This document shows, piece by piece, positions 12,571-64,000 of a stretch of DNA of 64,000 nt. Within the stretch, counting starts at the first letter, position 1. Each line of letters opens with the position of its first letter. The notes below the pieces were generated by a model. It had not been told where the DNA came from and searched no databases. It saw only the letters and a list, made by a program, of their open reading frames with translations. The position numbers were made by a program, and so were the translations under genes. The stretch covers positions 9,610,001 through 9,674,000 of the forward strand of contig OX597825.1 of the NCBI GenBank assembly GCA_951406725.2, in the 5' to 3' direction. The DNA is from Octopus vulgaris (taxonomy: Eukaryota).

Positions 12571-12816
12571 TATATAGCGAGGGAGGCACTTCCCATAAGA
12601 ATGAATCTGGGCATTTCAGTGTTCTAGCTTCGCTTCGTTCGTAAGGCTGTTGTCTACCCTATCAGTATGGATTAATGTGTGTTTTTTCGCATCTATAAGT
12701 GGTTTAACTGCTATTTCTAGCAATATATGTGCTTGTAGCACGCGCAATCAGAATTCGTGATGGCTAAATTTTGCCTAGGCGGTTTATATTGCGTCCAGTT
12801 GCCCACATTAAATATT

Positions 12817-25141: not shown

Positions 25142-25301
25142 TACATTATTTACATTATTTACATTTGACGGATACTTGTCCACATCTTGTTTGTTGTTAA
25201 CACAACGTTTCGGCTGATATACCCTCCAGCCTTCATCAGGTATCTTGAGGAAATTTCGAACCTGCATCCTCATTCTTCAGGTATTTTTCGATGTTATTAT
25301 T
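25142..25301 (-). mobile_element. PLE pLTR-like segment (family H2) carrying a hammerhead
   Basis: Homologous to both arms of the element at 56393-56863. Lies downstream of, and on the same strand as, the GIY-YIG ORF at 25529-26029. Confidence 0.8.
25200..25243 (-). ncRNA. Minimal type I hammerhead ribozyme
   Basis: Minus strand: atac CTGATGA a ggctg gagggtatat cagcc GAAA cg TT gtgt. Intact core, 5-bp helix II, and palindromic aacgtt in place of helix III. Confidence 0.8.
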
Positions 25302-25520
25302 GAGTGAGAGAGCAGTGCATGCCATCAAAGTGACACTGGGGTAAAATATACAAAGTAAAATATACGAACCTGTCTGATAAGGGTACACTAGGTACATGCA
25401 TCACAACCATATGTGTGCGACGTGGTGATCTCATATCAAGATAAACAGCACATGACTTTGCAGGTGGGGCCCAGTTAGAATTTTCTTCTGGTCGAGTAAC
25501 CTATCCCGCTCAAAAGGTCA
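25302..25520 (+). mobile_element. LINE 3'-UTR-like repeat fragment (same family as 18000-18511)
   Basis: Shares acaaccatatg...ttgcaggtgg-gcccagttagaattttcttctggtcgagta-cc--tcccgct. Confidence 0.65.
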
Positions 25521-25528
25521 AAATTTTC

Positions 25529-26029
25529 CTATCCTTTCTTAATACCAGTTCCCATATGCTGTTCATATCTGCATTCGGTCTGCTTAGGAGGTTGTTGTGT
25601 CCTAACATGTGCTGCTTCTTTTAGTTTTAGTATTTTCCAATGGTGTTCTCTGTCTATTATTTTAACTTCATCCCACAGGGGGATGTGGTCTCCATTTTTC
25701 CATACATGATCAGCTATACCCGATTTATCAATATCTCCTCGTGTCGTCGCTTTGCGATGTTCGTCTACCCTTATTTTGAGGGGGAAGCATGTTTCGCCTT
25801 TGTATAACCTACCACAGCTGCATGAGATGGAATACACGCAGGTTTTGGTCATATTCTCTTCTATTGGTGGTTTTACTCGAAGGAGATATTTGCGAAGTGT
25901 TGTATTACTTTTGAATACTGTCCTGATGTCATATGGATCGCATATCTTTTGTATCTTTTCGGAGAGGCCTTTCACATAGGCTAGACAGACTGTGGACAGT
26001 TTATTGGTTTCATCCTCTCTTTTCTTCAT
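25529..26029 (-). pseudogene. Penelope-like retroelement C-terminal GIY-YIG endonuclease fragment
   Basis: 166-aa ORF with LAYVKGLSEKIQKIC...VFKSNTTLR...CVYSISCSCGRLYKGET...LKIRVDEHRK...KSGIADHVW...LKEAAH: linker plus GIY-YIG domain. No RT is visible, so it is 5'-truncated. Confidence 0.92.
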
Positions 26030-33372: not shown

Positions 33373-33582
33373 GACCGCGTGTGTATCGTTGGTGATTTTT
33401 TGCCTCAGTCTTCCCTGCCTTGGATCTTTCCTTTTCCTATTTTTCTGACGAAAAGCTCCGCTCGAAACGTTAAATCCACGTTAAATTATTTCTTTCCTTT
33501 CCTAAGCGTCCAATAACACTATACTTGTTCCACGTCCTCGCGTTGTTGTGTTTTCTCTTTGTGTTTTCATGTTTGGATTAAC
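33370..33582 (+). mobile_element. PLE pLTR-like repeat (family H3) with a minimal hammerhead
   Basis: ttt CTGACGA a aagc tcc gctc GAAA cg TT aaa at 33442-33474. A ~210-bp pyrimidine-rich unit between TA-rich tracts. Confidence 0.6.
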
Positions 33583-56062: not shown

Positions 56063-56392
56063 AAAAATTATGATTGGTGTGTCCTGGAGCTTCTGCCAAC
56101 GAATTTCAAGCAGGGAATTGCGAATGAAAAGAGCTGCAGCAAAATTTGTGCCTCAATTGTTCATGGAAGATCAAAAGCAGTCACAACTGGATGCGCGTCG
56201 TGAACTGAAAGAACGGTTGGGGACGAAAGCTGGTGCTGCGGAATTTGTAGATGTAGAAGAGGTGAAGAAAAAATGACGGACGCTTTCAAAGGCATCACTT
56301 CACAAGAGTTCCAGCACTGCTTTGAACAGTGGAAAACGCGTCTGGACCGATGCATTGCTTCACATAGAGAATACGTAAACATGTAAAACTAA

Positions 56393-56629
56393 CATTATTT
56401 ATATTATTTACATTTGACGGATATTTGTCCTCATCTTGTTTGTTGTTAACACAACGTTTCGGTTGATATACGCTCCAGCCTTCTTCAGGGGTCTTGGTGA
56501 AATTTCGAACCTGGGTTCTCATTCCTATGACCACGGGCATATGGCGTAGTGGTTAAAAGCGCAGGATACTAACCCTAAGATTCCGAGTTCGATTCCAAAT
56601 AGTGACATGAATAATAATAATAATAATAA

Positions 56630-56660
<31 letters not shown>

Positions 56661-56863
56661 AAGAAGAAGAAGAAGAAGAAGAAGAAGAAGAAGAAGAAGA
56701 AGAAGAAGAACCCAGGCTCGAAATTTCCCCAAGACACCTGATGAAGGTTGAGGGGTACATCAGCCGAAACCTTGTTTTAACAACAAACAAGATGAGGACA
56801 AATATCCGTCAAATGTAAATAATGTAAATAATATACACAATTCCTCATCTCTTAAATATAGAA
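56393..56863 (+). mobile_element. tRNA-headed, hammerhead-bearing non-autonomous retroelement (family H2) with an inverted 5' copy and a 12-bp TSD
   Basis: TSD atgtaaaactaa (56381-56392 and 56864-56875). Inverted arms ~56394-56519 and 56708-56832. A box TGGCGTAGTGG (56542-56552), B box GAGTTCGATTCC (56585-56596), (AAT)n(AAG)n linker. HHR cores at 56449-56492 (-) and 56734-56777 (+). Confidence 0.85.
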
Positions 56864-57104
56864 ATGTAAAACTAAGTCAATAAAATAATATTGCAAAATT
56901 CCGGTTTCTTTTGGGTATCCACTCGTATATGCGATGCATAATTTACAATATTTTTTTTTTATTAGTCTTACCAATATAAATAGTATACATTTTTCTCTGG
57001 CAGAATACGTCTACGATTTCGTTCTATACATTCTAGATGACATAACAGGTAGGTAAGTAGTATCGTACTATTGTATTAAATATATATATACATACGTTTG
57101 TATG

Positions 57105-60250: not shown

Positions 60251-61128
60251 TTGCTCTTTGGTCAAGTCAGCTAAGCATTATTTGTATTTCTGCAATGCAA
60301 GAATGACTTAGTTTCTTGTATTGCTTGCTTTTCCATTTCCTTTTCCTTTTTCGTTTCTTTTTCTTTTTTTGTCATAAAATTTTAAAAATGCACAAAAAAT
60401 AAATTCCTAATAAAACTTTTTTCTCATTGTGTTATGGTAATGCTGATAAATTTTTTTCTAAATAAGAAAAAAAATAATAAAATTAAAAATATCGAGAGAA
60501 AACACGAAATAGTAATAAATTTCTTAGAAAAAATATGATTTCAATTATTTTGAACAGAAATTGCACTCGCTTCCAATAAAAGAGAACTGGCTGCAAGATA
60601 CTATCAAGAAACTATATAAACGTGTCGCTTAATCATCCTTTTGCGAACTTCAATAAAGTTGAGGATAAAAAAAAAAATACGCAATGACGTTGGTTATTGT
60701 TTTACAAAGGTTGTTGTGGAATGTGGGGAAAGACAAATAAAATAGTTACAATAAAACATTACAGAGAGCATTGCTGCAAAAAAGTTTTCTCTAAATATGT
60801 TGTAGTTTATTTTTAAGTTTCATTTTTACTCATTCTTTTTTGTCTGGTTTCTATCTGATATTCCTACTATCTTAAATATTTTCTCCGCCAGTCCTAGAAG
60901 TTTTCAACTCACGTTCATAATAAAGGTTTTGTATTGTGTAGTTTCATAAAAACACGCGTACTAATTTGTTACTTAGACACAAAGGTACTAAATACATAAG
61001 AGGGTGGAGAATAAGTTAAGAGATTGTGTTACGATTGCGTAACTTTTCTCCAAAAGTATTTTTCACGTGACTGATGTGAATTGGTCGGTTGATTTGGTTG
61101 ACGTCTCTCACATCCAATGATATATTAA

Positions 61129-61503
61129 TCTCTCTATATATATAAACGGCAGTTTGTCTGTCTGCGTGTCTGTGTGTCTGTTAGATTGTACCCTCACCCT
61201 GACCACGGCTTTCAACCGATTCTGATGAAACTTGACACACACATAGCCCAATGTCATAATTCAAAACTAACGCAGCGAAAAGTTTGAAAAGTTCCCCCAG
61301 TTCTGAAAAAAATCGATAAATTCGACATGGGGTCGAGAATCAGAAACACAAACCACAGACTGTCTAGGGGGTGCAACTCGACCTTTTTAACTCTCAAAAA
61401 AAATTTACCATCATTTTTTTGCTATGTTTTGGCTATAGTTCTCTAAAAATGCTTTATAGTTATTTCCCTTACAAACCCGAGCAACGCCGGGCGATACTGC
61501 TAG
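61129..61503 (+). mobile_element. Non-autonomous Helitron with a different 5' and internal region
   Basis: A|TCtctctatatatataaacggc...cccgagcaacgccgggcgatactgCTAG|T. Confidence 0.88.
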
Positions 61504-61614
61504 TAATTCATATGCGAATATAAGTGATTTTAGTGATTACTGCTTCTCTAACGACAGTTCAATAAAGACCTAGCAGGAAAGTAAAGAGACATCGGTCGAA
61601 ATAAGTGAAAGATA

Positions 61615-62012
61615 TCTTTATATATAAAAGAGAGGTTGTGTGCTGTCTGTCTCCTACGATTTAGATTCCTAACTACTCCCACATTTTGCGGTGCAGTTTA
61701 ACCAAAACCGGGTATCTTATAGTCGTGATTCATATCGAGCCCTTCTGGGTATTAGCGCGCGTCTACGATGAGTCTACGATTTAAAAAGAAATTACCATCA
61801 ATTTTTCTCATTTTTAATGCATTTTTGGCATATATAAGGGAAGTAACTCTCTAAAAATTTATTATTAAATCTCAGAACGTAAAAAGCTACAGTAACACCC
61901 CCCCCCCTTTGTGGTTAGCCATATTGAGATGGCTATTATACTTTACATCTCTAAAAATGCTTATATAGTTATTTCCCTTACAAACCCGAGCAACACCGGG
62001 CGATACTGCTAG
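61615..62012 (+). mobile_element. Non-autonomous Helitron
   Basis: A|TCtttatatataaaag...cccgagcaacaccgggcgatactgCTAG|T. The 5' half matches the copy at 11282. Confidence 0.9.
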
Positions 62013-62171
62013 TCACTGATTAAATTAAAATAAGTTTTGTGGATTCGCTTTTAGAACATAAGTAGCGCTCGAATCATGGTACGCTGATTAGATACTGTAA
62101 CAATAGCTTCTACTCAAAATATATCGTATATAAGATACTACGCACTGATATTCCTAAAAAAAGAAAAAATG

Positions 62172-62401
62172 TTCCTTCTCGAGCCATGCCAGTTTCCCAG
62201 TTTCAATGGTGTAGAAATCCCCCACCTGGGCGGGACGCCGGTCCGTCGCAGGATTAATCATTTTTGCCAGCTGAGTGGACTGGAGCAACGTGAAATGAAA
62301 TGTTTTGCTCAAGAACACAACACATCGCCCGGTCAAGGAATCGAAACCACAACCTTACGATCATGAGTTCAACACCCTTACCACTAACCACGTGCCTCCA
62401 C
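62172..62401 (-). mobile_element. tRNA-derived SINE family C
   Basis: Minus-strand B box GGTTTCGATTCC. The central tgctccagtccactcagctggcaaaaatga is shared, diverged, with the copy at 9200. Confidence 0.85.
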
Positions 62402-63248
62402 TAGTGATATTCATAAGTGGTCATGACTAACTTCAGATATTATCGACTACAAATTTCATTTTGTAGATTATATAAATGTCAACTTTTGCAGCTCGTCCTT
62501 AGAAAATCACCCATACTTCCATTACTTCACCTCAGCTTCTATAACCATCATATAATTCCTCGGGTAAATAGAAACAACAGAAAATATTGTTACGAGGTAG
62601 GATCACCATCAGTGTTTGCTTCATTAGGAGGAAACCTCAATTAATCGAATAATAAAACGTTTCGCGAACAGTGAGAATCAGAACGATGGCATACATATTC
62701 ATTGATAATACGTTCGGGAAAATTCGAAAGTGAATTTGAATATCGCTTTTTGTATTTCATCATTGGAAAGCAGCTTCTTCCGGATGACTGTGTTTATCCC
62801 ACACTCGATTCGTTAGCTTAAGGGGACGTTAGGATACTTAGTGTTACCGCATAGTTCTGTCTCTTGAGTCACGACTACTCCGGATTAATGAATTTAACGA
62901 ATTATTTGCTGACGCTGCCAAAGAATAATAAACTTCCATGAGCGAGGGGAACAGTGAGAATTAGTACGATAAAATATATTCATGATTAATGCGTTCCCGC
63001 TCTATTTTTCATATTAATGCGCTTTTCCTACGATTTATGGACAATTAACTAATAATATACATAGATAAACAGAGAAAGAGAGAGTTTGATAACACAGAGA
63101 GAGATATATACATTTATGTATATATATATATATATATATATTCATATATGTGTGTGCATACTTCCATCTATATGTATGTGTATGTATGTATATATATATG
63201 TATATATATGTATATATATGTATATATATATATGTGTGTATATATATA

Positions 63249-63289
<41 letters not shown>

Positions 63290-63484
63290 ATATAAATATG
63301 TATATATAGATATACATATATACATATATGTGTATATATACACATACATACATATATACACACACATACATATACATATACTAGGGTGTTAGGAAATACC
63401 TACAGTGCTAGAAGTAATAGCTAAACCGCTGTAATGCTGTAGTTAACGCACTAACGGGGATAATTACCGTTGGAAAAATGCCGA

Positions 63485-63553
63485 TCGAGAGTTTTTAATA
63501 CTGATGCGTCAGTTTCGGCAATTTCCATTGCGTCATCAGTTAAAACCGCTCGA
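63485..63553 (-). ncRNA. Type I hammerhead ribozyme, antisense copy
   Basis: Minus strand: tcgagcggttttaa CTGATGA cgcaat ggaa attgcc GAAA ctga cgca tcag TA ttaaaaactctcga. C.C mismatch at the base of helix II. Confidence 0.75.
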
Positions 63554-63722
63554 ACGTTCGGTTCTTTCCGGACTCGCTTCGCCATTAGTATTTGAAACAT
63601 TACAAACTGCTGTTTATATTAATTTTATATATACACATTAACGAATTACTAAATCATCCAATAATTTGGATAATGAAAACATAAATACTAATGACGATGC
63701 GAGTCCGGTGAGAGTCAAACAT

Positions 63723-63791
63723 TCGAGCAGTCTTAACTGATGAGGTAACGAAAATTGCCGAAACTGACGCGTCAGTATTAAGAATTCTCGA
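63723..63791 (+). ncRNA. Canonical type I hammerhead ribozyme
   Basis: tcgagcagtcttaa CTGATGA ggtaa cgaaaa ttgcc GAAA ctga cgcg tcag TA ttaagaattctcga. Intact core and all three helices, with an internal loop in helix I. Predicted GUA cleavage after 63777. Confidence 0.9.
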
Positions 63792-64000
63792 TCGGCACTT
63801 TTCGGACGATTATGGTCCCTGTTAATGTATACGATTTCATTTATGTGCGTTAACTACAGTATTAGAGCGGTGTAACTCTTATTTCTAGCAATGTAGGTAT
63901 TTCCTAACACTTATCACATTTAGTGACATTTGTAATTCTCTTTGTTGGTGAAACATTGAAAACTGCTGTTTACATTAATTTTACACACACACACACATAT

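Follow-up and report, generated by a model that had tools for sequence, protein, structure and literature searches.

Anatomy of the locus

The window analysed here (the whole stretch of 64,000 nucleotides of Octopus vulgaris contig OX597825.1, positions 9,610,001 to 9,674,000 of the forward strand) carries at its right-hand edge a 356-nt repeat unit with a type I hammerhead ribozyme motif, preceded by an inverted and truncated copy of the arm that bears the motif. From left to right, the insertion runs microsatellite, A′ (minus strand), R1, S, A, B, R2, (CA)7.5 and window end, and comprises the following features:

63104..63379, no strand: (TA/CA)n microsatellite that forms the left flank and was probably the target site (TRF period 2, 138.5 copies, 63104-63380)
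63380..63593, minus strand: A′, inverted 5′-truncated copy of the hammerhead arm, 85% identical to A
63493..63545, minus strand: degraded hammerhead that keeps its core but has a C in place of G10.1 and one break in the helix III palindrome; the cut would follow 63499
63593..63637, plus strand: R1, first copy of the direct repeat, beginning at the inversion junction with 1 letter in common
63638..63682, plus strand: S, AT-rich spacer with a small hairpin by folding, GC 0.22; follows R in other copies
63683..63914, plus strand: A, hammerhead-bearing arm (pLTR-like), with its inverted copy A′ at 63380-63593
63731..63783, plus strand: type I hammerhead, with helix I at 63731-63736/63778-63783, CUGAUGA at 63737-63743, helix II at 63744-63759, GAAA at 63760-63763, palindromic helix III at 63764-63775 and UA at 63776-63777; predicted cut after 63777
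63915..63948, plus strand: B, candidate Penelope-type 'tail' of 34 nt with a small stem-loop, missing from A′
63949..63993, plus strand: R2, second copy of the direct repeat, at which either a further unit begins or the insertion reaches its 3′ end
63983..64000, no strand: (CA)7.5, which may be the microsatellite of the right flank or, if the tandem goes on, an internal tract that has expanded

A preliminary description of this DNA had reported a direct repeat that brackets one plus-strand hammerhead and sets a period of 356 nt, and both observations hold. Specifically, 63593-63637 and 63949-63993 agree at 39 of 45 letters with a start-to-start distance of 356, and exactly one plus-strand hammerhead (core at 63737, predicted cut after 63777) lies between the copies. 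The R core, that is, the 34 nt outside the microsatellite, is identical at 31 of 34 letters between R1 and R2; among 200 dinucleotide-shuffled versions of 63383-63985, no 34-nt pair exceeded 24. Upstream of the repeat the likeness of R1 and R2 ends (10/33 letters identical), R1 terminates in a TA/CA tract, and downstream of the aligned microsatellite of R2 the window has 2 letters left. The ends of the repeat do not lie at the predicted ribozyme cut and are at least 172 nt away from it.

With its 356 nt, a GC content of 0.34 and a longest stop-free frame of 71 codons, the unit falls within the size and composition range of non-LTR retrozymes (~170-400 nt, GC below 45%, non-coding). No RT or GIY-YIG ORF was found in the unit, and the 12 frames of at least 60 codons in 60300-64000 are, by eye, short or microsatellite-derived; we do not file the locus as an autonomous Penelope-like element (PLE). 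Across the window, GC ranges from 0.25 to 0.43 per 2 kb and long frames are nearly all microsatellite translations. Both B (63915-63948) and the R core measure 34 nt, and the tail could be either. From the predicted cut to the tail end the distance is 171 nt; it is ~90 nt in a second hammerhead family of the window (described below) and 85-92 nt in the anole element (PMC11167929), in both cases about half of the value here.

The left half of the insertion, A′, had been omitted from the preliminary description. Aligned as 63386-63593 against 63683-63910, it agrees with A at 176 of 208 letters plus one 20-nt indel, transitions accounting for 22 of the 32 mismatches. The two arms are oriented head to head with their 5′ ends facing, so that 63380-63593 and 63683-63914 display the inverted, 5′-truncated copy at the 5′ end that marks Penelope-type insertions. 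The 5′ end of A′ is the first letter of R1, the single letter common to both, and its 3′ end at 63380 abuts the 277-bp TA/CA tract. By eye, the last six letters of A′ (63385-63380) are those that follow 63910 in other copies of the family. The inverted copy ends 34 nt short of the start of the direct part, because in other copies the six letters matching A′ follow 63910 and are separated from R by 34 more. No target-site duplication abutting both ends was accepted, an 11-letter word in common not lying at the left end and the right end being cut by the window.

The minus-strand hammerhead has kept its core, with helices II and III weakened, and at 63532 the aligned contigs mostly carry the canonical letter. 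Among the best 40 of 275 letter rows, 18 differences are listed for the plus arm, 4 of them inside the indel; at the remaining 14, A′ carries the majority letter 11 times and the letter of the window 3 times. For the inverted arm, 9 differences are listed, one of which was dropped (share under half), and the plus arm carries the majority letter at 7 of the other 8. Judged by these letters, each arm has drifted privately; the copy is old and decayed, and probably inert. Mismatches between A and A′ number 7 in the 53 letters of the hammerhead zone versus 25 in 155 elsewhere, the zone being no better kept; no selection on the ribozyme was seen at this locus, a core free of mismatches being not significant in so few letters.

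A dispersed family with a head-to-tail unit

Part of the studied stretch is present in 20 of the 24 sequencing runs listed, and half of its words in none, small shares being disregarded; no RNA holder is listed among the 24 runs searched, X19 being RNA by guess. Contigs from four runs, namely the DNA runs X1-X3 and X19, were aligned at 80% likeness, giving 1527 (X1), 1330 (X2), 1426 (X3) and 103 (X19) contigs, most of them less than 95% alike. These 1330-1527 contigs per DNA run identify a dispersed multi-copy family. Within the window there is no second copy of the unit, and weak matches to the stretch occur at 12698 and 7291. The details that follow, like the letter differences above, rest on the best-supported rows of each alignment table, their numbers being stated with each result.

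Sequence resembling B stands before 63593 in the loose ends of 21, 30 and 29 contigs of X1-X3 (best 24 of 1017), the consensus there being equal to 63919-63948 at 26 of 30 letters by eye. Behind R2, among the loose ends listed, S-like sequence follows in 18 contigs of X1 (24 of 30 letters, by eye) and in 2 contigs of X19. One joint, among the best 15 of 209, runs 40 letters from 63910 to 63593. The best 32 of 5037 pieces include some with the order R-S-A (63593-63856, 63593-63831 and 63604-63883) and others with the order R-S-A-B-R (63612-63963, records 20 and 28), the latter two being only ~83% alike and therefore derived from other loci. With B before R, S behind R and pieces that read R-S-A-B-R, the family is therefore built of R-S-A-B units joined head to tail, and at the direct repeat unit n runs into unit n+1.

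Among the same 32 pieces, no contig extends across the entire stretch or across the inversion junction, and none carries two hammerheads. As no piece listed crosses 63593, the inversion looks particular to this locus, a hole of this kind in itself proving nothing.

Aligned depth at 63866-63907 is several-fold above that of the rest of the unit, and this segment has a weak match at 12698-12730; the peak probably reflects a short motif common with a more abundant repeat. Pattern scans of metagenomes returned 0 loci and then 4, with matches ending at 18-22 letters, and a viral scan returned 4 loci with matches of 19-28 letters, whose 100 displayed letters lack a hammerhead core. The matches of both scans were taken as chance.

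The hammerhead, its predicted folding and other repeats of the window

The plus-strand motif has the hallmarks of a type I hammerhead, with the CUGANGA, GAAA and UH core, three helices and an open helix I. Helices I and II comprise 6 bp and 5 bp, respectively, and helix III is a 12-nt palindrome (up to 6 pairs). No other motif of this quality occurs on either strand of the window, and 30 block-shuffled windows yielded 0. In some aligned contigs 2 letters are missing at 63768 or 63770, within the helix III palindrome (63764-63775), and palindromy would persist in them. At gathering score, Rfam found nothing in the window (0 hits); the 46 weak hits in 62000-64000 included no hammerhead family, were mostly miRNA models placed on the long hairpin and the microsatellite, and were rejected.

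In the folding model, which includes no tertiary contacts so that its probabilities are weak evidence, the active monomer fold has a probability of 0.001 in a 91-nt piece and of 0.006 in 63593-63998 or the circular unit. The active fold is predicted to be rare because the core pairs with the helix III palindrome, and its modelled probability is near zero when the inverted arm is present in the same RNA. For two 74-nt copies the best predicted dimer fold is a double hammerhead; for two 91-nt copies it is not. In a transcript through 63380-63910, the arms are predicted to pair as a hairpin of ~208 bp, masking both hammerheads (-300 kcal/mol for 63380-63993). Animal retrozyme circles, some mussel ones excepted, are described as mostly predicted to leave the ribozyme free (PMC7229834).

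A second, unrelated hammerhead family lies at 56381-56875, with inverted arms at 56394-56519 (minus) and 56707-56832 (plus) that are ~90% identical, a 31-nt tail confined to the direct arm and, flanking the whole, a direct repeat of 12 nt. Between the arms are a short piece that looks like a SINE by eye and an (AAT)(AAG) tract. A third copy of this family (25145-25264, minus) is located ~270 bp 3′ of a 166-codon frame (25532-26029, minus strand), for which the nearest Atlas clusters have GIY-YIG in 12-18% of their members; a Pfam scan of this ORF found 0 families. Positions 25145-26029 are probably a 3′ fragment of an autonomous Penelope-type element. The anatomy of this second family, together with its copy 3′ of a GIY-YIG-like frame, suggests that PLE-type insertions are common in this DNA. 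Elsewhere in the window, a CTGANGA with a downstream GAAAC at 33445-33490 (plus) failed the helix filters and is perhaps the remnant of a third family, and two nearby repeats at 61440-61502 and 61957-62012 have near-identical 3′ segments by eye.

Models of the insertion and comparison with known elements

Published accounts of PLEs describe partial tandems, an inverted 5′-truncated copy at the 5′ end and a tail of 30-40 bp (Craig 2021, PMC8557442), head-to-head as the usual orientation together with a 31-bp tail (Arkhipova 2013, PMC3846280), and hammerheads in the pLTRs, with opposite-strand pairs 100-700 bp apart (Cervera 2014, PMC4209133). A PLE protein was reported to cut and extend both target strands, with two RT start sites that bound the tail (Frangieh 2024, PMC11167929); its targets are AT-rich, and in vitro uncut RNA is the main template and ribozyme cutting is not needed. 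Non-LTR retrozymes have been defined with mussel units of 350-390 bp and with PLEs named as candidate movers (Cervera and de la Pena 2020, PMC7229834), and they have been argued to derive from pLTRs in a preprint whose argument, from 31 vertebrates, 3 insects and a coral, is co-occurrence and sequence similarity (Li, Clavereau and Pollet 2026, bioRxiv 10.64898/2026.07.22.740005).

Our results suggest, with reasonable though far from complete confidence, that the locus is a decayed insertion of an ORF-less PLE derivative that resembles non-LTR retrozymes and depended for its movement on a PLE protein acting in trans. Which enzyme acted, where it primed and what it copied are deduced from the anatomy of the insertion. 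By analogy, the element would behave like a non-LTR retrozyme or a non-autonomous PLE, such elements having been described from many animals. Under this model, the 356-bp repeat would derive from the terminal repeat of a PLE, and its more-than-unit-length RNA, either a read-through multimer or a circle, would be bound by a PLE RT-endonuclease that nicks both strands of the TA/CA tract and primes twice. The first cDNA would yield the direct part, R1-S-A-B-R2 and perhaps more; the second would start 34 nt upstream of the unit boundary, as far as start sites can be placed from one locus, and yield the inverted part. The two cDNAs would be joined head to head, after which both arms would drift. 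No autonomous partner retrotransposon sharing the unit sequence was found within the 64-kb window. The bolder proposal that the locus preserves the trace of two priming events by a Penelope-type protein, at sites 34 nt apart on a circular RNA of retrozyme size, seems to us unlikely; in it, the direct part would begin exactly at one start site because reverse transcription made complete laps, and the inverted part would begin at the other.

A sub-case of the main reading, which we hold tentatively as a possibility, is that the family is an expressed retrozyme and that reverse transcription ran around its small circular RNA more than once, the tandem continuing past 64000 with a second plus-strand hammerhead near 64095. 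The preliminary description had likewise proposed, for the redundancy around its ~356-nt, retrozyme-sized unit, either reverse transcription of a small circular RNA or a tandem array running off the window. Of this, the period survives as the head-to-tail unit of the family, which is of retrozyme size, and the origin from a circle is no more than one possibility: PLEs make partial tandems and short extensions, the repeat ends lie well away from the cut, and the window has one same-strand hammerhead. Release of a monomer needs two, so that none can be cut out of the visible sequence. For tandems like these a circular template has been hypothesized (PMC4209133, PMC7229834), and the R-to-S junction in the two contigs of X19 would agree with it if that run is indeed RNA; the B-R-S junction is present in the DNA runs too and is therefore no proof of a circle. 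Elsewhere in the family a short TA/CA tract closes R before S begins, so the terminal (CA) tract, with 2 letters after the aligned part, could be internal; against this, it resembles the left flank, as expected for an insertion that ends at R2. As a circle, the unit is predicted to fold with a stability not clearly above that of shuffles (z -1.4, 56% paired), and uncut RNA is what the PLE uses in vitro (PMC11167929).

It is unlikely, in our judgement, that the unit never moved alone and that the locus consists of pLTR fragments of an autonomous PLE, the junctions being short truncated copies stacked in tandem. PLE insertions are usually 5′-truncated and tandem (Goubert 2022, PMC8969392; PMC8557442), and record 22 (3413 letters) extends ~3.1 kb upstream of 63620 into what may be an element body or plain flank; yet many contigs from three runs have the same start point, R after B and then S, whereas random truncation should vary, and no ORF lies within or beside the unit. 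Quite unlikely, too, are two insertions at one microsatellite, a 5′-inverted A′ plus R1, of the twin-priming kind, directly upstream of a 5′-truncated S-A-B-R2. The difference between the arms at 32 of 208 letters plus the 20-nt indel could mean two source copies, and a TA/CA tract stands at the end of R1; however, in the family S normally comes straight after R, so no second event is needed, and the divergence of R1 from R2 (3/34) is indistinguishable from that of the arms (Fisher p 0.43). A local 45-bp duplication, the alternative named in the preliminary description, or an assembly artefact beside a fold-back, for which the AT-rich and microsatellite-dense surroundings might speak, is very improbable, and as the origin of the repeat the duplication is refuted: other copies carry the segment in both contexts with the same neighbours on both sides, and the two arms, at 85% identity and with an indel between them, are unlike the identical arms of a fold-back read.

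By itself, the locus is one decayed repeat among many. An ORF-less, retrozyme-sized unit with apparent marks of Penelope integration, namely the inverted copy and the 34-nt offset, is of modest value, the enzyme that moves animal retrozymes being still a hypothesis in print (PMC7229834; Li 2026 preprint). If the bolder proposal of two primings on a circle is true and the same end positions recur family-wide, they would be direct genomic evidence of PLE enzymes moving circular animal retrozymes; such retrozymes would here carry a long-palindrome, dimer-prone hammerhead. Our literature search, with most subscription journals and repeat databases outside its scope, found no cephalopod hammerhead repeats of this kind, and the family may already be catalogued; it found no work that pairs retrozymes with inversion or tail signatures. 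An octopus repeat annotation counts Penelope-like families, ribozymes being absent from its main text (PMC13282606).

Like the mussel and other metazoan non-LTR retrozymes described in PMC7229834, the octopus family has a non-coding, head-to-tail unit of 356 bp with a GC content of 0.34, one type I hammerhead and dispersed copies. It departs from them in the one visible same-strand hammerhead, in the inverted truncated copy within the insertion and in helix III, a 12-nt palindrome here versus 1-2 bp there. This helix is also longer than in the animal PLE or retrozyme hammerheads described in PMC4209133, in which a large helix III is attributed to fungal and protist elements and not to animal ones. 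With the retrozymes of Li 2026 it shares the proposed origin from a pLTR and movement by PLE enzymes, monomeric offspring being common there; by contrast, inversion and tail signatures do not appear to be used in that account, and the two consecutive hammerhead units required for its 'active' class are not visible here. The plant LTR retrozyme, with a type III hammerhead inside each LTR (Li 2026), differs from the type I motif between 45-bp repeats found here. Anatomical parallels are also shared with the pLTR ends of endonuclease-bearing PLEs (PMC8557442, PMC3846280, PMC4209133, PMC11167929), namely a terminal-repeat hammerhead, a partial tandem, a probable AT-rich target, a head-to-head inverted 5′-truncated copy and an offset of 30-40 nt that may correspond to the tail, from which the octopus locus is set apart by having no RT or GIY-YIG ORF, a hammerhead that is complete rather than minimal and a longer distance from cut to end.
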